A DNA stretch of 64,000 bases from contig DATFEP010000064.1 of the NCBI GenBank assembly GCA_035250975.1, positions 1 through 64,000 of the forward strand. Reading direction: 5' to 3'. Source of the stretch: Nitrososphaeraceae archaeon. GTDB lineage: Archaea > Thermoproteota > Nitrososphaeria > Nitrososphaerales > Nitrososphaeraceae. Shown here in pieces: positions 5,056-64,000 of this stretch. The position numbers and the translations under genes were made by a program. Within the stretch, counting starts at the first letter, position 1. Every line of letters begins with the position of its first letter. The notes under the pieces are model-generated. The model had not been told where the DNA came from, searched no databases, and saw only the letters and a program-made list of their open reading frames with translations.

Positions 5056-6123
5056 CTAAAAAGTTGATAATAATTCCATAATTGAACTTTCTGGATCTTT
5101 TCCTACAGGATTTATCTGAATTATAGGTAAGGTTATTCCAGTATTTACAAACATTTCTAGAGATTTTCTACATTCTTCTTTACTTCCACATATTGTTAGC
5201 GTTTCGAGCATCCTATCAGATACAAATCTGTGGATATTCTCAATTCCATTCTTTTTGTATTCCTCTGTAATATTATTAACTTCATATTCATAGCCCGTTT
5301 TTAGTAGAAACCTACTATAGTACTTACCCACAGCCACATAGAAAGCAAGAGTTTTTGCCGCTCTTTCTCTTGCTTTGTCTGGTTCTTTGTCAGATACAGC
5401 AGTTATGAAAGCACAACAAATCTCAAAATTTCTTTTTTGTTTTGATTCGTAATCTTCTTTAATATTTTTTATACCATTTTCACCAAATTTTTCATGGTAA
5501 TTACCCACATTTTTTTTCTCAGAAATCTTACTTAAAATACGATCTACTGCGTTTTTTAATTCGTTCTTTGACCTGAGATACAACAATATTCCATCTGAAA
5601 GTTCACAGGATAAGTCTATCATACCATTATTTACAGCAGCAGTATAAATCGGGATATTTTCCCTTTGAGGTTTGAAGAGTATTTTAAAATCATTTATCTT
5701 AAAATATTTTCCTTCAAATTTTACTTTTGAACCCTTCATTATCATTCTGATGCATTCAATATATTCTCTCATTTTTTCGAAAGGATTGTCAAATTTAATT
5801 CCATGCCAATTTTCTACTAATGCGGGTGTGCTCACACCAAGTCCTAGAATGGACCTGTTATTAGACAATATATCAAGAGTAGAAATAGCCATTGCCACCG
5901 TGGCAGGTGTCCTAGAATGAATGCTAACTATTCCAGTACCTAGTTTTACTTTATTTGTGACCTGGGATAGGGCGCCCAACGATACAAAAGCCTCGCGGCC
6001 CCAAGATTCTGGAACCCATAATGAATGTACATTTGTTTTTTCTTCAACTTTCTTTGCAAAACCTAATATAGATTCGACAGAAAGAAGCGTCCCAATATTA
6101 TAACCGATTTTATCAATCAACAT
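5056..6123 (-). CDS. LLM-class (luciferase-like, probably F420-dependent) oxidoreductase
   Basis: LWVPESWGREAF, KLGTGIV, LGLGVS motifs of the Mer/LLM family. Confidence 0.85.
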   Translation of the reverse strand: MLIDKIGYNIGTLLSVESILGFAKKVEEKTNVHSLWVPESWGREAFVSLGALSQVTNKVKLGTGIVSIHSRTPATVAMAISTLDILSNNRSILGLGVSTPALVENWHGIKFDNPFEKMREYIECIRMIMKGSKVKFEGKYFKINDFKILFKPQRENIPIYTAAVNNGMIDLSCELSDGILLYLRSKNELKNAVDRILSKISEKKNVGNYHEKFGENGIKNIKEDYESKQKRNFEICCAFITAVSDKEPDKARERAAKTLAFYVAVGKYYSRFLLKTGYEYEVNNITEEYKKNGIENIHRFVSDRMLETLTICGSKEECRKSLEMFVNTGITLPIIQINPVGKDPESSIMELLSTF

Positions 6124-6135
6124 AAATACATTATA

Positions 6136-6822
6136 TTATGTTGGATTATTATCTAGCTCTTTCGCAGCTTCATCGATATCTTTATGGGAGTCAATAGATC
6201 TCCAAAATATATCGATAAACCGGATTCCTTTTAGTTTACCATCCTTTGCCATGGCCGGTAAAGCAGTAGTCTCTATGTTTCCATTATCGGGTAAATATTC
6301 GAAAATTTCCTTTGTGAAATAATACACTCCTGCATTTATCCACTTGTCAGGAATTTCAGGTTTTTCATCAAATCCGATTACATCAGAATTTTTATCTATA
6401 TTTACTACACCATAAGGACTTCTTAGGGGAACAAGCGCAATACTAGATTTATTTTCTTTACACAAACGATGTGGATCGAGATTTGTCAATATGTCTCCAT
6501 TAGTCATAAAGAATCCATTATCAGTCGAACCGGTCAGCAAACTGGAAGTATTTTTTAGTGCTCCACCCGTTCCCAAAGGAGTGTCTTCTACTACATAACC
6601 TATTTTGATCCCAAATTTGTTTCCACTTCCTAGATAATCTATAATTGTTTCTTTGAGATATCCTAAACAAATAATTATTTCATCAATATTATGTTTTTTA
6701 AACCATCTAATTTGCCATTCTAATATAGGTTTATTAAGCACCTCTATCATTGGTTTAGGTCTGTCATTGGTCAGCGGTTTAAGTCGCTTTCCTAAACCTC
6801 CGGCTAGAATTACGGCCTTCAT
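6136..6822 (-). CDS. sugar-phosphate nucleotidyltransferase
   Basis: AVILAGGLGKRLKPLT..PKPM, PLGTGGAL, NGD, EKP. Confidence 0.9.
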   Translation of the reverse strand: MKAVILAGGLGKRLKPLTNDRPKPMIEVLNKPILEWQIRWFKKHNIDEIIICLGYLKETIIDYLGSGNKFGIKIGYVVEDTPLGTGGALKNTSSLLTGSTDNGFFMTNGDILTNLDPHRLCKENKSSIALVPLRSPYGVVNIDKNSDVIGFDEKPEIPDKWINAGVYYFTKEIFEYLPDNGNIETTALPAMAKDGKLKGIRFIDIFWRSIDSHKDIDEAAKELDNNPT

Positions 6823-56144: not shown

Positions 56145-56807
56145 TTATACATACAAGAATTTTGAGAACCATTGTAAAGCCAACTTAGAAACTTCCTCTA
56201 GCGTTCCAGGTTCTTCAAAAAGATGTGTCGCCTTAGGAACAATTATCAATTTTTTATCTTTCACTTCTTTAAGATTTTCGAATGCATCTTTATTTAATTT
56301 TATAACTTCAATATCTTTTTCTCCAACTAGTAAGAGTGTTGGTGCTTTTACCTTGAAAAGTGCGTCATTTGCCAGATCCGGTCGCCCGCCTCTTGAAACA
56401 ATAGCTTTAATATTCTTATTATCTGCTGCAGCCACCAGAGCTGCAGCAGCACCAGTACTTGCACCAAAATATCCGATTTTTAAATCTTTTGTACTGGGAT
56501 TTTCTTGAATCCACTTCGTCGCATCATTCAATCTATCAGCCAAAAGTTTGATATCAAATCTGAAATGACCACTCCACATCTCTTCATGCTCTTCTTCTTT
56601 TGTAAGGAGATCAAACAAAAGTGTTGAAATATTACCATCTTGCAATGTTTGTGCTACATATTTATTTCTTGGACTAAATCGACTGCTTCCACTACCATGA
56701 ACAAAGAGAACTATTCCACTTGCCTTATCCGGAATTGAAAGATTACCTTCCAGTACTTTTGAACCAGAAGTAATAGACACACTATTAATAGCAGATTTTT
56801 TGGTCAT
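56145..56807 (-). CDS. dienelactone hydrolase-family alpha/beta hydrolase
   Basis: HGSGSSRFSPRN, GASTG nucleophile elbow, SRGGRPDLA, THLFEEPG. Confidence 0.88.
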   Translation of the reverse strand: MTKKSAINSVSITSGSKVLEGNLSIPDKASGIVLFVHGSGSSRFSPRNKYVAQTLQDGNISTLLFDLLTKEEEHEEMWSGHFRFDIKLLADRLNDATKWIQENPSTKDLKIGYFGASTGAAAALVAAADNKNIKAIVSRGGRPDLANDALFKVKAPTLLLVGEKDIEVIKLNKDAFENLKEVKDKKLIIVPKATHLFEEPGTLEEVSKLALQWFSKFLYV

Positions 56808-57086: not shown

Positions 57087-59375
57087 GTGATAATAAATTT
57101 AAATAACTTGAGAATATCTATTTCTGGAACAATACAAGGTGTAGGTTTTAGACCTTTTATCTATAGAATTGCAAATGAATCTCATCTTTACGGGTATATA
57201 CAGAATAAAGGAGATGGGATCGTAGAGATCTGCGTTCAAGGAAGCCAGAAAAATATTGAACTTTTCATAAGAAAAATGAAAAATGAGAAACCCGTCCTTG
57301 CACATTATGATCATATTGATATCATGGATCTTGATGAGAAAAAAAAATACAATGATTTTACCATAATTGATAGTTCCAAAACAAGATCAAAAACAGGTTC
57401 TTCAATCCACCCGGATATTTCAATATGTAAAAAGTGTACGATAGATTTTTATCAAAATAAAAGGAGATATCAGTATCCATTCATCTCATGTACCGAATGT
57501 GGGCCAAAATTTACGACATTAAAAATGTATCCTTACGACAGAACAAATACAACAATGTCAGATTTTGCAATGTGTAAAGAATGCGAATCTGAATATAATG
57601 AACCAAAGAATAGATTATTTCATTATGAACTAATATCCTGTACGGAATGTGGACCAAAATTTTCTATTGTAGATAACAAAGGTCATATTATCAATACCAA
57701 TGATCCCGTATCACTTTCAGCGAAATTGCTTATGGAAGGAAATATAATGGCTGTAAAGGGTCTTGGAGGTTTTCACGTCATAACATCATCCACAAAGTCC
57801 GAACCGATAATGAAATTGCGAAATAAAAAAGACAGAAAAAATAAACCTTTTGCGATCATGGGCAAAGATGTTCAATCCATAAAATCGTTTGCCTGCGTAA
57901 ACGATTTAGAAGAAAAAATATTAACTTCCATGACAAAACCTATTGTTCTATTAGACAAGAGTAACAATTATTTTCTTTCTCCTTTCATTTCACCGAATCT
58001 CCACAATGTTGGAGTTATGCTTCCTTATATGGGGTTACATATAATGTTATTCGAATCCATCGAAGAACCTGCTTTGGTTATGACCAGTGGAAACGAAAGT
58101 GGTAATCCGATAATAAAAGATAACAAAGAAGCTATAAAATCTCTAGGACATTATGTAGATTATTTTTTGATTCACAATAGAGAAATATTTTCGCGATGTG
58201 ATGACTCGATAATTAAAGTCATAGAAGATAACCCTATACTATTAAGAAGATCCAGAGGATTCGTTCCATCAAAGATCTCTTTTACAAAAAGTATTCCAGA
58301 TTGTATTCTAGCACTTGGTGGAGAAATGAACGTAGTATTCTGTATATTATATAATGAAGACTGTTTCATTTCACAACATATTGGAGACCTTTATAATCCA
58401 GATTCTTATTTATTTTTTAAGAGTACAATTGAACAAATGATGAAATTTCTAGATTTGAAACCGTCTTTTTTAGCATGTGATTTACATCCTTCTATGTTAA
58501 CGACGAACTTGGCTTATAATATTGCTCAGAATGAATCTAACGTCTTTCAAGTACAACACCATCACTCCCATATAGCCTCTCTAATGTCAGAACACAACAT
58601 ACAAGATATTATAGGAGTGGTGTGTGATGGAATTGGATATGGTTTAGATGGAAATCTATGGGGTGGGGAAATATTCAAATGCGAAAATGTAACAAACATT
58701 CAACGAATTGGACATTTAATTGAGCAACCCATGATAGGAGGAGATTTGGCGACACTAAACCCCTTAAGAATGGTCGCCGGAATACTATATGGCAAGGTTG
58801 ATGGTTTTGAAGATTTCCTATATTCAAATTTAACACGGTTCCGGTATGGACATAAAGAAATAGAATCCATCATTGGCAATCTGCAATCTGATTCATATTC
58901 CAAAACTACCAGTACGGGCAGGATACTTGATGCAATATCATCTCTACTTGGGATTTGTTATGATAGAACTTATGAAGGAGAGCCTGCAATATCACTAGAA
59001 TCAAGTTCAATAAATGGCAAAGATATTTTCATTGATCCAAAAATATCAGGAAATATTTTGGATACTACATATTTACTAAAATTTATATACGAAAACAGAG
59101 GTAGGCTTTCTCCAAGGGATCTCGGTTATTCTGCCCATTCCTATCTCGCAAATGGTTTAGGAGAAATTGCTGCAGAAAATGCACTGTCTACGGGTATCAA
59201 AGTTGTTGGGTTTTCAGGAGGAGTTGCACATAATAGAATTTTTACAAAAATCCTAAAAGAAGAGATTGAGAAGAGGGGGTTGAGGTTTCTACTACACCAA
59301 AAAATTCCACCTGGAGATGGAGGAATTTCTGTAGGTCAAGCTTATTATACTATGAATAAAATTCTAAATAGCTGA
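57087..59375 (+). CDS. hypF: [NiFe]-hydrogenase maturation carbamoyltransferase
   Basis: GTIQGVGFRPF acylphosphatase domain, two Zn fingers (CxxC..CTECGP), KGLGGFH, QHHHSH, GDGGISVGQ. Confidence 0.96.
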   Translation: MIINLNNLRISISGTIQGVGFRPFIYRIANESHLYGYIQNKGDGIVEICVQGSQKNIELFIRKMKNEKPVLAHYDHIDIMDLDEKKKYNDFTIIDSSKTRSKTGSSIHPDISICKKCTIDFYQNKRRYQYPFISCTECGPKFTTLKMYPYDRTNTTMSDFAMCKECESEYNEPKNRLFHYELISCTECGPKFSIVDNKGHIINTNDPVSLSAKLLMEGNIMAVKGLGGFHVITSSTKSEPIMKLRNKKDRKNKPFAIMGKDVQSIKSFACVNDLEEKILTSMTKPIVLLDKSNNYFLSPFISPNLHNVGVMLPYMGLHIMLFESIEEPALVMTSGNESGNPIIKDNKEAIKSLGHYVDYFLIHNREIFSRCDDSIIKVIEDNPILLRRSRGFVPSKISFTKSIPDCILALGGEMNVVFCILYNEDCFISQHIGDLYNPDSYLFFKSTIEQMMKFLDLKPSFLACDLHPSMLTTNLAYNIAQNESNVFQVQHHHSHIASLMSEHNIQDIIGVVCDGIGYGLDGNLWGGEIFKCENVTNIQRIGHLIEQPMIGGDLATLNPLRMVAGILYGKVDGFEDFLYSNLTRFRYGHKEIESIIGNLQSDSYSKTTSTGRILDAISSLLGICYDRTYEGEPAISLESSSINGKDIFIDPKISGNILDTTYLLKFIYENRGRLSPRDLGYSAHSYLANGLGEIAAENALSTGIKVVGFSGGVAHNRIFTKILKEEIEKRGLRFLLHQKIPPGDGGISVGQAYYTMNKILNS

Positions 59376-59429
59376 TTTTTTATTATCTATAATCTTTATA
59401 GGCTAGATTTTCCTATCAATTCCAGGCTT

Positions 59430-59744
59430 ATGTGTTTGGCTTTTCCAGGCAAGATAACTGAAATAATAGGAGATTTTGCCAAGATAGATTTTGGTGGAGG
59501 TACTATGAGAAATAATATTAATATTTCCTACGTTGATGGTCAAGTGGGAGATTATGTTCTTATTCATGCAGGGTATGCAATCCAAGTATTGGACCTGGTT
59601 GAGGCCGAAAATATATTGAAATACTGGGTCGACAATACATCTTGGAAGTGTAACCAGTGTGAAATAATAAATGAATGTTACACCGGAAATTTGGTTAAAG
59701 AAGTAAAACAGATTAAACATAATAACTTGGGTTCGGAATCATGA
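59430..59744 (+). CDS. hypC: hydrogenase assembly chaperone HypC with a Cys-rich extension
   Basis: MCLAFPGK, VGDYVLIHAGYAI. Confidence 0.93.
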   Translation: MCLAFPGKITEIIGDFAKIDFGGGTMRNNINISYVDGQVGDYVLIHAGYAIQVLDLVEAENILKYWVDNTSWKCNQCEIINECYTGNLVKEVKQIKHNNLGSES

Positions 59745-60850
59745 TTCTAGAAAAGTACAAAGATCCCGAATTAGCAAAGAATATTACTGAAAAGATCCGT
59801 GAATATGCCGATTCGATAGAAGAGAACCTGCTTTTTATGCATGTTTGTGGATCTCATGAATGGACGATATCTCACTATGGCATAAGGTCGCTGATCCCTA
59901 AAAATATAGAGATAAGACCTGGACCTGGCTGTCCTGTTTGTATTACTCCAGCTGAGGATATAGACAATGCCATAAAGCTCGGTTTAGAAGGAAAAACCAT
60001 TTTAGTATATGGAGATATGTCAAGGTCGAAGGGATCAAAAGGAAAAAGCCTTTTAGATATAAGGGTACTTGGTGCTAAAATCAAGATAGTATACAGCATA
60101 CAGGAAGCCATATTATTAGCAAGAAATGACCCAACAGAAGACTTCGTCTTTTTCGGAGTAGGATTTGATACCACTGCCCCTCCTACTGCATTTGAGATAT
60201 TGAAAGGTTTACCACCGAATCTTGCTATCATTAATTCATATAGATATATGCCTCCAATAGTGGGTGCAGTTATAAAATCGTCTGTACTGGGTGTGGATGC
60301 CGTATTAAATCCGGGACATTCATCTACAATAACTGGAATGAAACCTTATTACAGATATTTTCTAGAAACTAGAAAACCTCAAGTCTTTTGTGGATTTGAA
60401 CCTATTGACATTTTATTGGGAATTCTAATTCTGTTAAAACAGATAAAAGATGGAAAGGCGAAACTAGAAAATGAATATCAAAGGTCAGTCACATGGGAAG
60501 GAAATAAACATGCTCAGAAAAAACTTGAAGATGTATTTGACCTAGACACAGGTTACATAAGAGGAGTAGCAAGTATTCCAGAATGCGGTTTTACGTTTAA
60601 GGAAAAATATAAGGATGTTGATGCATATGTCAAATATGGTTTATCAAGGCAAACAAATAATGAACATTTTGTAGCAGGAGCTCGATGTGGTGAAGTGATT
60701 TTAGGTCTTTGTGAACCTACTGAATGTCCGCTATATATGAAAGAATGTACTAAACAGACACCTAAAGGGCCTACGATGATTTCTCTTGAAGGCACATGTA
60801 GAATATGGGCTGAACATAATCTGATTAAATCTATAAAAAAACTTTCTTAA
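59741..60850 (+). CDS. hypD: hydrogenase formation protein HypD
   Basis: HVCGSHE, GPGCPVC, GFDTT, PGH, and a C-terminal Fe-S Cys cluster. Confidence 0.95.
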   Translation: MILEKYKDPELAKNITEKIREYADSIEENLLFMHVCGSHEWTISHYGIRSLIPKNIEIRPGPGCPVCITPAEDIDNAIKLGLEGKTILVYGDMSRSKGSKGKSLLDIRVLGAKIKIVYSIQEAILLARNDPTEDFVFFGVGFDTTAPPTAFEILKGLPPNLAIINSYRYMPPIVGAVIKSSVLGVDAVLNPGHSSTITGMKPYYRYFLETRKPQVFCGFEPIDILLGILILLKQIKDGKAKLENEYQRSVTWEGNKHAQKKLEDVFDLDTGYIRGVASIPECGFTFKEKYKDVDAYVKYGLSRQTNNEHFVAGARCGEVILGLCEPTECPLYMKECTKQTPKGPTMISLEGTCRIWAEHNLIKSIKKLS

Positions 60851-60869
60851 TATTCAATATTGATCTTTT

Positions 60870-61652
60870 ATGGCTTTTTTTATAGGAAATAGTTTTTGTA
60901 AACTTTGTCAAAAGGATGAAGAACAACTTGTAAGTGAATTATTTTACTGTACAAAGGGACTAATTAATAAGGGTTATTCGATAATTAAAAATACACTAAA
61001 TAGTGCACGACTCCCAAGTTGTGACGACTTTTATGTAACATATTTTAAAAATAATATATGGAATTCAGATATCAAAGTACTAAAAATAAATATAAAAGAT
61101 TGTTGTAATAATCATGAACAACCCACAAACGGTGTTGAAGTTGATAAAGGCGAAATTTTGCTACATACGAAAATATATCAAGCTCGTCCGGATGTCAATG
61201 CTATTTGTCATACAAGAAATCCATATTCGATAATTTTAGACAATGATACTTTTAAAAGAGTACATGGAGAAGCTACATTGATCTTAGGCGACATTCCTAT
61301 CATGGATATTGAAAATTTTTCTGATGAAAATAGAACGGTGAGCTTCATAGAAAAAATAGTTCAATCAACTATAGGCGAACCCCTAAGGCCTATAAGAACC
61401 GTAATATTATCAAACAATAGTGTTTTGGCTCTTGGTTCCTGCATACATGAAGCAAGAGCATTTACAGAAATACTGGAAGAATGTGCCAGATTTTACATGA
61501 TATCTAAAATTTTTGGCGGACCGCTAAATCTGCTTACACTTGATCAATTGAGAGGTTTGGGATCGAGATATGCAAGAGCCATAAAATTTGGAGGAAGGAA
61601 AATAATGTCTAATGCGAATCGTCCAGATGTTCGGATTAATAAAAATTTTTGA
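60870..61652 (+). CDS. class II aldolase/adducin-fold protein with a degenerate metal site
   Basis: E.LLH.KIYQARPDVNAICHT, LALG..IHEA....E.LEECAR; the usual HxH and NHG ligands are altered. Confidence 0.7.
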   Translation: MAFFIGNSFCKLCQKDEEQLVSELFYCTKGLINKGYSIIKNTLNSARLPSCDDFYVTYFKNNIWNSDIKVLKINIKDCCNNHEQPTNGVEVDKGEILLHTKIYQARPDVNAICHTRNPYSIILDNDTFKRVHGEATLILGDIPIMDIENFSDENRTVSFIEKIVQSTIGEPLRPIRTVILSNNSVLALGSCIHEARAFTEILEECARFYMISKIFGGPLNLLTLDQLRGLGSRYARAIKFGGRKIMSNANRPDVRINKNF

Positions 61653-62056
61653 AAATGATGCTAAAAAAAATTCTAGTTTTTGGTAATCCTTTGGTTAGAA
61701 GGGACAGCCTGCCTCTAAAATTATTAGATGATCTTAGAAATGAATTTCCTAACATAGAATTCAAAGAATTTGATTCAATTGAAGAGATACAAAATGAAGG
61801 GGATACTCTTTACATTTTGGATTCGGTAGAAAAAATAAAAAAAGTGATGGTAATAACCGATTTAGATCAATTGGCTACAGACAAAATATATTCGGTCCAT
61901 GATTTTGATTTAGCTATCAACCTCAAGATACTAAAGAAAATAGGTGTGATAAAAAAGATAATTATTCTTGGAGTGCCTATGAATATTACGCATAGTCAGG
62001 CATTACAAGAGATTAGAGAAAAAATTATATCCATTTCAATCTCAAAAAATGACTAG
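61649..62056 (+). CDS. hydrogenase maturation endopeptidase-like protein (HycI/HybD fold)
   Basis: ILVFGNPL..DS, YILDS, SVH, IIILGVP; lies in the hyp operon and faces a large subunit with a cleavable tail. Confidence 0.72.
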   Translation: MKMMLKKILVFGNPLVRRDSLPLKLLDDLRNEFPNIEFKEFDSIEEIQNEGDTLYILDSVEKIKKVMVITDLDQLATDKIYSVHDFDLAINLKILKKIGVIKKIIILGVPMNITHSQALQEIREKIISISISKND

Positions 62057-63302
62057 CACAACTCATACACGGATCGTATGCCCTTATTATTTTTTCAAGC
62101 TCATGATAAATAAAGTGTTTATCTTTGTCTAAAATGCTAGGTAAATGATTTTTTATATCATTTTCCATCTTAATTTGATTTTGTGCTGTTGGTATTACAA
62201 AGTTGGCAAATTGTACTTTTCCTTCTCTGTTAAGTTCAACCATATGATACAATGTACCACGAGGAGCCTCTATTACTCCAACTCCTTTACCTTCTCTTGT
62301 TTTAATTTCGGGAGGAGATTCGCGAGTAAATTCATTTTCTTCAAGAATTTGAATAGTATGATCTATACAATGTAGAATTTCAATAGATTGTGCAAGATTG
62401 TTATGATAAATATTATTTGATGGAAAGACTTTAAGGATTTCAGATATATCCTTTTTTGAATTTTTATGGATAGATTCTCTATTCAAATTTAACCTAGCCA
62501 AAGCTCCTACCATGTATTCTTTGTCCCTGAATCTAAATCCAGTAGCCTGAGAATACGGGATAATAATTCTTTCTAGGTGATTCCAATATTCATCTTCTTT
62601 TATTTTCATTCCGTCTGAAGAAGCGATCTCACCCTCCAAAAAACTAAAATCGTCTGTAACTAGAGATACGAAAGTGGATTCTCTGCTAAGGTCAAAATTG
62701 CATTCATAAAATATTTTTATGAGTTCAAGAACCGTATCTCTAGTTGCTTTAAATTCTGACAATAATTCTTTTAAATTTTCTTTTGAAGGTAAATGAGAAA
62801 ACTGTCCAACCTTTTCAAATGTTGGATGAACAGCCCTGCCAGCAACTATTTTCGAAAGATTGTTTCCAAGACTTTTTACATTGAAACCCTGTTTGATTAG
62901 ATAATTTTTTGTTTCATCAAAATCAAATACAGAATCTGTATTAAAAACATCAGGAAGACAGAAGAAGTACAAATGTAAAGCATGATCCCGTATCATCATT
63001 CCATATACAGATAACTTTCTTAATAATTCAGTTTGTTTTGTTGGTGTGATCTCGAGACATTTTTCGATTGATTCAATGCTACAGGTTAAGTGTGCTATGC
63101 TACATGTACCGCATATCCTAGAAACAAATTGTGGAACACTAGAAAAATGTCTATTTCTTACTGCTTGTGTATAAAATCTTTTATTTTCATTTATCTTTAA
63201 TTTGACATCTTCTACTTTTCCCTTCCTAATTTTTACTTCAATGTCTGCATGACCTTCTGTTTTACTTATTTGTTCTATATTGATATCGAAACTATCATGC
63301 AT
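62025..63302 (-). CDS. [NiFe]-hydrogenase large subunit, group 3b-like
   Basis: KTEGH, L1 SRICGTCSIAH, VGALAR, EAPRGTLYH, PTAQN, L2 RAYDPCMSCASH plus a 7-aa tail. Confidence 0.92.
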   Translation of the reverse strand: MHDSFDINIEQISKTEGHADIEVKIRKGKVEDVKLKINENKRFYTQAVRNRHFSSVPQFVSRICGTCSIAHLTCSIESIEKCLEITPTKQTELLRKLSVYGMMIRDHALHLYFFCLPDVFNTDSVFDFDETKNYLIKQGFNVKSLGNNLSKIVAGRAVHPTFEKVGQFSHLPSKENLKELLSEFKATRDTVLELIKIFYECNFDLSRESTFVSLVTDDFSFLEGEIASSDGMKIKEDEYWNHLERIIIPYSQATGFRFRDKEYMVGALARLNLNRESIHKNSKKDISEILKVFPSNNIYHNNLAQSIEILHCIDHTIQILEENEFTRESPPEIKTREGKGVGVIEAPRGTLYHMVELNREGKVQFANFVIPTAQNQIKMENDIKNHLPSILDKDKHFIYHELEKIIRAYDPCMSCASHFLRLKWI

Positions 63303-63774
63303 TTACAAGACCAAATTCCTTCATATAACCATCTAATTTTGATAGAAATAATTTTTCATCCATTGGACATCCCGAAATGAAATCATCAACATTTACAAAT
63401 TCCGAAATAGGAGATACCTTGTTTCTTTGTCCAAACTGCTCTAAAATATGGAAAATCTCATTTTTTGTCGAATCATCAAAGTAATTTCTTTGATTCGCTG
63501 GGCTTCCTGTACATGCACAACTTCCTATTGCAATTAATTTTTTTGAATTCTTCCTTATTTCTTTAAGAAATTCAAGCTCTTTGTCAGTTGAAATTGCTCC
63601 TTCTACAAAAGCCAAATCTAAATTAGTAAAATCGTTTTTTCCTTTGAAAGTTCTAAAATATTTAAAATCCAGTAGATCTTTCCACTTTAAAAAATTATCA
63701 TTCATTAATTCTATGAACACTATAGTACTGTCTTCGCAACATGTAAATGAAAACCAGCCAGTTTTGAGTTTCAT
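63295..63774 (-). CDS. [NiFe]-hydrogenase small (delta-like) subunit, short form
   Basis: GWFSFTCCEDS, AFVEGAI, IAIGSCA, VDDFISGCP; overlaps the large-subunit start; ATG at 63774 preferred over 63831. Confidence 0.85.
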   Translation of the reverse strand: MKLKTGWFSFTCCEDSTIVFIELMNDNFLKWKDLLDFKYFRTFKGKNDFTNLDLAFVEGAISTDKELEFLKEIRKNSKKLIAIGSCACTGSPANQRNYFDDSTKNEIFHILEQFGQRNKVSPISEFVNVDDFISGCPMDEKLFLSKLDGYMKEFGLVNA

Positions 63775-64000
63775 TAACACATTAGCAATAAAGCTATCGT
63801 ATTTAAAATAGTTCACCTTTTTGATTCCCAATTTTCATTTTAACATATTTGTTTTAGAAAATTGTGTTGCGACATTTTATTATTTAATTTACGTTAGTTA
63901 TCTTATTAAATTCTAAAAATCGATCATCTTAAATCTTGTTAACAAAAAATTATCTTTTTACAAAGAAATTTGAAAGAGTTCTAAATACTATAACTATAAT

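Follow-up and report, generated by a model that had tools for sequence, protein, structure and literature searches.

Ammonia-oxidising archaea are regarded as metabolically narrow. A stretch of 64,000 nucleotides from a genome of the family Nitrososphaeraceae (contig DATFEP010000064.1 of assembly GCA_035250975.1), referred to here as the window, carries a cluster of hydrogenase structural genes and hydrogenase maturation (hyp) genes. The locus is predicted to encode a complete cytosolic two-subunit [NiFe]-hydrogenase of the group-3b-related type called hyd2, not a four-subunit enzyme of group 3b. The best explanation overall, to which we assign a probability of about 0.7, is a functional two-subunit hyd2 enzyme that would combine structural genes of a type found in DPANN archaea with thaumarchaeal Hyp machinery and would exchange electrons with a separate partner. 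Judged from these genes, some nitrifying archaea can probably make or use H2. A first-pass annotation of the window, made by a model from the letters and their open reading frames (ORFs), had described a group 3b-like hydrogenase with a maturation operon in a probable mesophilic ammonia oxidiser.

The catalytic large subunit (62025-63302, complementary strand; 425 amino acids (aa)) matches PF00374 above its cut-off and is the only [NiFe] large subunit in the genome. It contains the motifs L1, RICGTC (C64, C67), and L2, DPCMSCASH (C412, C415, H418), the latter followed by a C-terminal tail of seven residues, FLRLKWI. The four metal-binding cysteines are invariant in 24 aligned sequences, which confirms the first-pass reading of four Ni/Fe cysteines with a cleavable tail. 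Among solved structures, the nearest are alpha subunits of group 3b enzymes (5yxy and 9nez, E 3e-56, matched over the full length). For both subunits the best-scoring curated models are those of the 3b ShyA/HydD families, but they stay well below their cut-offs: with the large subunit ShyA reaches 269 bits (cut-off 700) and HydA 210 bits (cut-off 880), and with the small subunit HydD reaches 61 bits (cut-off 500).

The small subunit precedes the large subunit on the same strand, and its stop codon and the large-subunit ATG overlap by 8 nt, an arrangement indicative of translational coupling that had already been recognised. Its ORF is open to a TTG at 63831, which had been taken as the start; 13 of 14 aligned relatives, however, begin within a few residues (MKL...) of an internal ATG at 63774. 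Because of this agreement the ATG is the likeliest start, and the small subunit is most likely 159 aa long (63295-63774). The protein matches PF01058 (62.9 bits, cut-off 27) and bears the motifs TCCEDS, GSCAC and GCP, with cysteines at positions 12, 13, 86 and 136 of the 159-aa form. It stops directly after GCP, whereas the 270-aa delta subunit of a Nitrosocaldus-type ammonia oxidiser (genome G032) adds two further Cys-rich cluster motifs in the alignment. The small subunit therefore consists of the proximal-cluster domain only, the domain for the medial and distal clusters being missing; similarly, it matches residues 2-148 of the 256-aa delta subunit of soluble hydrogenase I (SHI) with an E-value of 8e-16. 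The tandem cysteine of TCCEDS replaces the canonical CxxC in 12 of 15 hyd2 rows, the other three having CSEDS, SDEGC and GDEGC. A tandem cysteine is also the pattern of cluster N2 in NuoB. A homologue of the small subunit, P0004 (548 aa, 66% identical), bears the intein/LAGLIDADG domains PF14890 and PF14528 and is thus a hydrogenase small subunit with an intein.

The genes of the locus are under purifying selection. When the window is compared with its nearest relatives, the ratio of non-synonymous to synonymous substitution (dN/dS) is 0.09-0.10 in the large subunit (0.05-0.10 overall), 0.14-0.21 in the small subunit, 0.13 in the maturation protease, 0.18 in the aldolase-like gene AldL and 0.06 in HypD; all five lie between 0.05 and 0.21.

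The two-subunit design recurs among the relatives of this enzyme. When the genome (2.49 Mb in 91 contigs, 94.6% complete, 2.6% contamination) was searched by tblastn with the beta (Fe-S) subunit of G032, nothing was found. The gamma (flavin/NAD(P)) subunit of G032 gave a single match, which is PyrK since it adjoins the gene for dihydroorotate dehydrogenase (PyrD), and no true gamma was found. Neither subunit is present near the locus. The absence of beta and gamma subunits first noticed in the window thus extends, PyrK apart, to the genome as searched. Relatives were collected from contigs of one genome per species. The small-large arrangement is seen in 41 of 46 related loci, and in the remaining five the contig ends at the large subunit; the small-subunit ORFs are mostly 156-202 aa long. 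No beta or gamma subunit was found among 10 neighbouring ORFs tested in six loci of DPANN archaea and of bacteria of the candidate phyla radiation (CPR). A relative with a 3.5-Mb, 99%-complete genome, in which the locus only was searched, has just the two structural genes beside the hyp genes on a contig of 1.8 Mb. In our own tree the large subunit groups with CPR sequences bearing hyd2 features, apart from canonical 3b enzymes. The first-pass annotation had called for a tree with DPANN and Patescibacteria relatives, and this grouping is its outcome; identity to the Nitrosocaldus-type enzyme is only 34%. The assignment to hyd2 is based on the features in common and on CPR sequences drawn from genomes of the same sort. 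With a small subunit ending after the proximal-cluster domain and an already described enzyme type to match it, the minimal, 3b-like two-subunit enzyme proposed at the outset is supported.

The structural genes are accompanied by a set of maturation genes. On the forward strand, hypF (57087-59375) encodes a 762-aa carbamoyltransferase (TIGR00143, 793 bits, cut-off 466) with five Pfam domains, namely acylphosphatase, two Zn fingers, YrdC-like and Kae1-like. It is followed by hypC (59430-59744), encoding a 104-aa chaperone (TIGR00074, 57 bits, cut-off 48), and by hypD (59741-60850; 369 aa; TIGR00075, 370 bits, cut-off 193), which overlaps hypC by 4 nt. All three exceed their curated cut-offs and can be considered intact, as previously suggested. 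The C-terminal extension of HypC (59640-59744, residues ~70-104) contains a conserved WKCxxCEIxxEC motif, present in 6/6 aligned ammonia-oxidiser copies and in 0/2 aligned CPR copies. The first-pass annotation had also advised looking for hypA, hypB and hypE in the next stretch of DNA. Indeed hypE lies directly past the window: its likely start codon, MEKKRISLAHGAGG, occupies bases 63999-64001 on the forward strand, so that only its first bases (63999-64000) fall within the window, and the gene ends at contig position 65054 (TIGR02124, 359 bits, cut-off 252). The two others were not found in this genome, where the best HypA match reaches 23.8 bits against a cut-off of 28.9 and has an internal stop, none being above the cut-off, and the best HypB-like match, probably UreG, reaches 78 bits against a cut-off of 121. 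HypA and HypB are likewise below their cut-offs in four other carrier genomes, and a HypA-like ORF adjoins the hydrogenase operon of G032. Among hyd2 carriers of other lineages, HypD was not found in 5/5 DPANN and 5/5 CPR genomes examined, nor was HypA in the five DPANN genomes examined.

The maturation endopeptidase (61649-62056, forward strand) is a divergent protein of 135 aa. It has no Pfam match at the default threshold; PF01750 matches the protein of the window with an E-value of 0.008 and 13 of 15 homologues at E<=0.1 (best 7e-6). No protease was matched when its sequence profile was compared with the PDB, and a fold search alone succeeded: the five best PDB matches found by Foldseek with the AlphaFold2 model (predicted local distance difference test (pLDDT) 83.3) are HybD/HycI, with E-values of 1e-5 to 8e-4. 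Residues G12, N13, D19, D58, H84 and D87 are invariant, and D19, D58 and H84 fit the metal triad of HybD. Of 46 related loci, 40 have a homologue of the protease next to the large subunit. The protease initially proposed is hence present, recognisable by its clear HybD/HycI fold more than by its weak resemblance to PF01750.

Four further genes accompany the hyp genes. AldL (60870-61652, forward strand; 260 aa; PF00596, E 1.5e-15), which lies between hypD and the protease gene and had gone unmentioned in the first-pass annotation, is related to class II aldolases. Outside the window, hypE is followed by o92, encoding a Cys/His-rich protein of 92 aa with zinc-ribbon features, then by o124, encoding a helical protein of 124 aa, and, on the opposite strand, by a second class II aldolase-like gene, Ald2, beyond which unrelated genes begin. 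The order hypE/o92/o124/Ald2 is kept in related ammonia-oxidiser loci and in G032. The cluster of the latter comprises a hypC-like gene, hypE, homologues of o92 and o124, hypC, hypD and homologues of AldL and Ald2; since the same four accessory genes occur there, AldL, Ald2, o92 and o124 belong to the ammonia-oxidiser hyp cluster, whichever hydrogenase is present.

AldL always stands directly after hypD, G032 included. The second histidine of its HxH motif is replaced in 8/8 orthologues and the third histidine in 5/8, while Ald2 keeps both. These histidines are zinc ligands of class II aldolases. AldL is accordingly a degenerate member of its family; its conserved features include an N-terminal CxxC and a C-terminal tail, LGSRYARxIKFGGR. 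Strong orthologues (E<=8e-62) occur in 14 genomes of the family, every one of them a hydrogenase carrier; in the three carriers lacking one, the locus is cut by a contig end or the genome is 78-87% complete. The best match among 221 non-carriers (1.5e-20) is a generic paralogue. AldL is thus a candidate maturation factor, judged by its sequence and occurrence. For o92, a sequence search returned two near-identical proteins only, a profile search against the PDB gave no match, and the AlphaFold2 model (pLDDT 74.5) has no Foldseek match at E<=0.001, with a generic zinc-ribbon likeness. Leads from a protein atlas pointed to rubredoxin/desulforedoxin-like proteins, at merely 0.80-0.83; in the fold search o92 resembles neither HypA nor rubredoxin. 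A co-complex prediction of the large and small subunits with o92 as partner returned 'no answer' (score 0.00) and is uninformative either way on binding. The profile of o124 found no match in the PDB, and its protein-atlas leads are HEPN/PaREP1-like, at merely 0.88-0.89.

Maturation genes and structural genes appear to have different histories. The genes hypF, C, D and E, together with AldL, Ald2, o92 and o124, are common to the Nitrosocaldus-type ammonia oxidiser, which has a four-subunit enzyme. For HypD, identity is 69% with the G032 protein and 73% with members of its own genus. The structural genes and the protease, in contrast, group with DPANN sequences of Aenigmatarchaeota type. The large subunit shares 65-96% identity with those of other Nitrososphaeraceae, 54-65% with those of Aenigmatarchaeota and unnamed archaea (61-65% for the Aenigmatarchaeota copies), 50% with that of one Nanoarchaeota genome, and 44-53% with those of Patescibacteria and otherwise-labelled bins (44-48% for Patescibacteria). 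A tree of 47 large subunits was computed with IQ-TREE (LG+C20, quick search) with the Shimodaira-Hasegawa-like approximate likelihood ratio test (SH-aLRT) as sole support, and was rooted on three canonical group-3 sequences of the class. In this tree the 14 rows from ammonia oxidisers fall into a single clade (SH-aLRT 100), which is nested in successive Aenigmatarchaeota-type groups (SH-aLRT 96, 96 and 99), CPR and Nanoarchaeota sequences being nearer the root. Transfer from a DPANN archaeon into the family would be the better-supported direction, though it is not proven. Within the family, the large subunits of the window's genus form two separate clades, and the subclade of the window is 77-78% identical to another genus versus 70-72% to its own, which suggests either exchange within the family or an uneven definition of the genus.

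The locus does not result from misassembly. An identical order of genes was recovered in two independent assemblies, one of them on a contig of 1.8 Mb, with large subunits 95-96% identical. In an independent soil DNA run, 29 of 30 bins of the locus are covered by contigs, one of which spans both subunit genes and the intergenic region, and composition is even across the locus. The misassembly that the first-pass annotation had named as a possible refutation was therefore not borne out. In a strain of the independent soil run X2, 81 bp of the spacer between the small subunit and hypE (63862-63944) are absent. In the closest relative on a long contig, transposase-like ORFs separate hypC from hypF and hypE from the small subunit (L016:11874-15151 and L016:6400-7471), while the hydrogenase and hyp genes are intact.

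Within the family the hydrogenase is found in 17 of 238 genomes and 4 of 18 genera. The carriers per genus, with the window genome excluded, are 9/24, 4/72, 2/2 and 1/14, and with the window genome included 10 of the 25 genomes of its genus are carriers. No stop occurs inside the match in 16 of the 17 copies, three of which are cut by contig ends; the copy of G244 has two stops. When 401 genomes were drawn evenly from the class, matches of at least 70% identity were restricted to this family, all else being at or below 35%, and for the largest other family of the class the count is 0/223. Two more families of the same order, represented by G566 and G570, show matches of canonical type (34-35% identity, ~420-430 aa, one with a stop), so hydrogenases other than hyd2 may occur beyond the Nitrosocaldus-type family.

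Near-identical DNA, defined as half or more of the sampled words being present in a run, occurs in 13 runs from nine studies labelled soil, wetland, wastewater or plain 'metagenome', the possible source run excluded. The first-pass annotation had also relied on core genes of ammonia-oxidiser type on the same contig. The organism is indeed an ammonia oxidiser, as its genome contains archaeal amoA (394 bits), but this gene is located on another contig, C61, and the rest of the window holds ordinary housekeeping genes (PurL, PurF, ArgRS and PolX). From the habitat labels and amoA together, the organism can be considered a mesophilic, terrestrial-type ammonia oxidiser, in agreement with the host deemed probable at first. 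Passages of a 2023 review (PMC10432482) describe true hydrogenases of ammonia oxidisers as confined to thermophilic Nitrosocaldus, none of them tested. Full-text searches of the literature returned no report of a [NiFe]-hydrogenase in mesophilic Nitrososphaeraceae, although supplementary tables of metagenome surveys may list some. Three soil RNA libraries from two studies contain contigs that match parts of hypF, hypC and hypD and the point where the genes of the large and small subunits meet, a weak hint of expression. Much of the locus, most of the large subunit included, has no RNA-library contig in the three runs, which is not evidence of silence.

Clues to the electron partner come from fusions. 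In total, 34 longer proteins containing this type of small subunit were found: 24 have an N-terminal thioredoxin-reductase-like (TrxR-like) domain (PF07992), eight an FNR-like domain (PF00970/PF00175), one an intein and one an unknown C-terminal part. In the natural flavoprotein fusions, several of which are from Aenigmarchaeota, the portion corresponding to the small subunit shares 47-59% identity with the one described here. The gene of the window is unfused, with no such flavoprotein linked to the locus, whereas elsewhere the two are joined; by analogy, the fusions suggest direct electron exchange between cluster and flavin. Eight aligned TrxR-like domains of the fusions keep CxxC and show GNGNHA and SNA in place of the GGGDTA and HRR of the genome's two ordinary thioredoxin reductases (TrxRs). 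Since the NADPH motifs GGGDxA and HRR are missing, the fused domains are probably NADPH-independent. The two intact TrxRs of the genome are of the ordinary, NADPH-dependent type. One 2-oxoacid:ferredoxin oxidoreductase is encoded in the genome. In carrier loci of other genera the flanks are housekeeping genes (SAM synthetase, CoA biosynthesis and P-type ATPase), and no partner emerged from them. A TrxR-like gene of the genome lacking the NADPH site (C10:~5200-6183, L080) has a frameshift, an in-frame stop and an odd C-terminus; its relatives are intact and 324-330 aa long, and the break, on a contig of 6.4 kb, may be an assembly error. The best inference is a flavoprotein or a ferredoxin-type donor that would dock on the single cluster.

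The window covers the initial 64 kb of contig C15, which is 104 kb long, and the cluster is situated 57 kb in. Its structural genes are convergent to the hypF-hypC-hypD-AldL-protease block, and the protease and large-subunit genes share 32 nt at their 3' ends (62025-62056). The same convergent overlap was observed in related ammonia-oxidiser loci, and several CPR loci show one of ~60 nt. Between the divergent genes for the small subunit and hypE lies an AT-rich non-coding region of ~225 bp (63775-63998), in agreement with the original view that the sequence upstream of the small subunit is non-coding; it presumably contains divergent promoters for the two genes. A gene of the dienelactone hydrolase family (56145-56807) lies divergently beside hypF; as one is found likewise in a carrier of another genus (L071:13441-14085), it may be part of the conserved block. 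At 10 kb past the cluster, a gene for AMP phosphorylase is present (C15:74185-75723, L001:12185-13723; TIGR03327, 570 bits, cut-off 535). AMP phosphorylase is a member of the archaeal AMP/type III RuBisCO pathway.

Several observations weigh against a functional hyd2 enzyme acquired from DPANN archaea and working with a separate partner. Nickel insertion is unexplained, because HypA and HypB were not found above their cut-offs in the genome. The presumed ligands of the proximal cluster are atypical (a tandem CC that varies in 3 of the 15 hyd2 rows), which makes the type of cluster uncertain. No partner gene linked to the locus was found, and the C10 gene lacking the NADPH site had to be rejected as a dedicated partner, as its occurrence in the family does not follow that of the hydrogenase: many genomes without the enzyme have it, for example 24 of 34 in a genus with 0/34 hydrogenases. 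The RNA-library contigs may stem from DNA carry-over. Regarding the origin, the tree is the product of a quick search without bootstraps and has very long outgroup branches; moreover, forcing 11 DPANN rows, a group named after the tree was seen, into a single clade costs 25.9 log-likelihood units, which is not significant in the approximately unbiased (AU) test (p-AU 0.081).

Two alternatives concern the identity of the locus, and both seem very improbable. The enzyme could be an ordinary four-subunit 3b hydrogenase as in Nitrosocaldus, with beta and gamma encoded elsewhere or on unassembled DNA. A genome in 91 contigs that is 94.6% complete could indeed have lost these genes from view, and the best curated models are those of 3b, ShyA/HydD. 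Nevertheless, these models remain far under their cut-offs (269/700 and 61/500), identity to the true four-subunit enzyme of G032 is only 34%, and the small subunit is devoid of the domain that would wire it to beta. No match to beta was obtained, the sole gamma-like match is PyrK, and the relative with the 1.8-Mb contig also has two structural genes only at its locus. Even less credible is a binning or assembly artefact, in which a DPANN fragment was joined to, or binned with, the genome of an ammonia oxidiser; the nearest non-thaumarchaeal relatives are DPANN archaea, which are low in G+C too, but the cluster lies 57 kb into a 104-kb contig of even composition, is contiguous with hyp genes that show 69% identity to their G032 counterparts, and has the same arrangement in 17 genomes of four genera, once on a 1.8-Mb contig. 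Contigs of the independent soil run, furthermore, bridge both subunits and the intergenic region.

The remaining alternatives accept the locus as genuine and differ in what it does or where it came from. The proteins might be kept without H2 turnover, as a relic, a sensor or another redox module, a role like that proposed for the Cys-less Ehr complexes of other ammonia oxidisers. The redox partner, HypA and HypB that were not found and the two stops in the copy of G244 could be taken in this sense, and HypD, not found in 10/10 DPANN/CPR carriers, raises doubt that the family is always matured. Yet the four metal-binding cysteines and the cleavage motif are invariant, and the ammonia-oxidiser copies always occur with hypCDEF and the protease, under purifying selection; a real [NiFe] centre is indicated because the retention of six costly maturation genes otherwise makes no sense, and we consider loss of turnover unlikely. 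A somewhat larger, though still small, chance must be granted to the reverse transfer, from ammonia oxidisers to Aenigmatarchaeota, or to a third donor common to both. The AU test does not reject a tree that unites the 11 DPANN rows in a single clade excluding the ammonia oxidisers, and exchange of genes from TACK to DPANN archaea is reported for Aenigmarchaeota in sections of PMC8407114. On the other hand, the free tree nests the ammonia oxidisers in DPANN with SH-aLRT values of 96-99 and places Nanoarchaeota and CPR nearer the root, and hyd2 is spread across many CPR and DPANN phyla while within the class it is limited to 17 of 238 genomes of one family.

Under the preferred explanation of a functional two-subunit hyd2 enzyme, a subset of Nitrososphaeraceae would have joined thaumarchaeal Hyp machinery to laterally acquired structural genes of DPANN type. 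HypCDEF would assemble the Fe(CN)2CO centre, nickel would be inserted without canonical HypA/HypB, and the protease would cleave the seven-residue tail off the large subunit. The resulting heterodimer may pass electrons between H2/H+ and a separate partner docked on the exposed proximal cluster, the likeliest partner being a flavoprotein (TrxR-like or FNR-like) or a ferredoxin/2-oxoacid:ferredoxin oxidoreductase. Either direction of catalysis can be envisaged, and the enzyme could serve as a redox valve or a supplementary source of reductant in soils of fluctuating oxygen. A bolder and distinctly more doubtful proposal is that AldL, Ald2, the zinc-ribbon protein o92 and the helical protein o124 form a module of the ammonia oxidisers' own. 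This module would serve two unrelated hydrogenases, replacing HypA/HypB in nickel insertion and/or supplying the CO ligand in an aerobe that lacks the known routes, while the minimal hydrogenase would feed or drain a flavoprotein or ferredoxin directly.

With a [NiFe]-hydrogenase retained in 17 of 238 species-level genomes of the main soil family, key nitrifiers would have a broader potential for energy and redox metabolism. H2 could be an auxiliary reductant, and its release could be a valve in anoxia. Although hyd2 occurs widely among ultra-small symbionts, no member of it has, to our knowledge, been characterised, and those hosts are uncultured. The ammonia-oxidiser hyd2 would therefore be the most tractable entry point to this enzyme type, since its maturation set is predicted to be complete and relatives of the host can be enriched. 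The locus also offers a clear case of mix-and-match, in which foreign catalytic genes appear to be combined with native assembly genes.

Among known systems, the HoxYH module of group 3d (PDB 5xf9) also has a short small subunit (189 aa, E 4e-7). In HoxYH this subunit holds the proximal cluster only, and electrons are passed to separate subunits. It is far more distant in sequence, however, and works in a complex with the HoxFU diaphorase, absent here. The hydrogenases belonging to group 3b in Pyrococcus furiosus and Thermococcus kodakarensis (sulfhydrogenase/NAD(P)-linked; alpha-beta-gamma-delta; 9nez, 9e15, 5yxy) are the closest structures for both subunits. Their alpha subunit is of similar length (428 aa), and the L1/L2 cysteine motifs and short C-terminal tail are as in the window. 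They differ in having beta and gamma subunits and medial and distal clusters, for none of which a counterpart was found here, and in having CxxC instead of TCCEDS. The engineered alpha-delta heterodimer of P. furiosus SHI is described in parts of Hopkins et al. (2011, PMC3200332) as active and as taking electrons from pyruvate:ferredoxin oxidoreductase. According to the same source, a two-subunit enzyme of 3b type can thus be catalytically competent without using NADPH. That heterodimer is man-made and thermophilic, and, unlike the small subunit described here, its delta subunit retains three clusters.

The 3b enzyme of Candidatus Nitrosocaldus is likewise hosted by an ammonia oxidiser, and G032 has a hyp cluster of the same make-up, homologues of o92, o124, AldL and Ald2 included. 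Its structural operon encodes beta (Fer4_22), a cNMP-binding regulator, gamma, a 270-aa delta and a 474-aa alpha, in agreement with passages describing Ca. Nitrosocaldus cavascurensis (Abby et al., 2018, PMC5797428). With 34% identity between the alpha of G032 and the large subunit of the window, the two enzymes appear to be of unrelated origin; a HypA-like ORF is moreover found in G032, and the lineage described here is mesophilic by habitat label whereas Nitrosocaldus is thermophilic. The closest counterpart is the hyd2 of CPR bacteria, whose small subunits are given in portions of Jaffe et al. (2020, BMC Biol 18:69, PMC7304191) as truncated (mean 164 aa), with beta and gamma not nearby. The same portions present the large subunit as related to yet distinct from 3b, as a CPR-specific clade and as uncertain in function. 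The likeness to this description lies in the truncated small subunit, of 159 aa here, and in structural genes with no beta or gamma beside them; in addition, CPR large subunits are 44-48% identical and the small-large-protease arrangement is common to both. In Aenigmarchaeota, '3b-type' hydrogenases have been reported, as far as PMC8407114 is represented by its relevant sections, without a hyd2 distinction. The differences are that a clade termed CPR-specific in those portions of PMC7304191 here has a free-living-type ammonia-oxidising archaeon as its host, and that the locus is equipped with hypF, C, D and E and four conserved genes, whereas HypD was not found in the five CPR and five DPANN carriers examined. 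The enzyme type is thus already described, if uncharacterised, and what is new is its mesophilic ammonia-oxidising host, its mosaic make-up and the four conserved genes of the hyp cluster.

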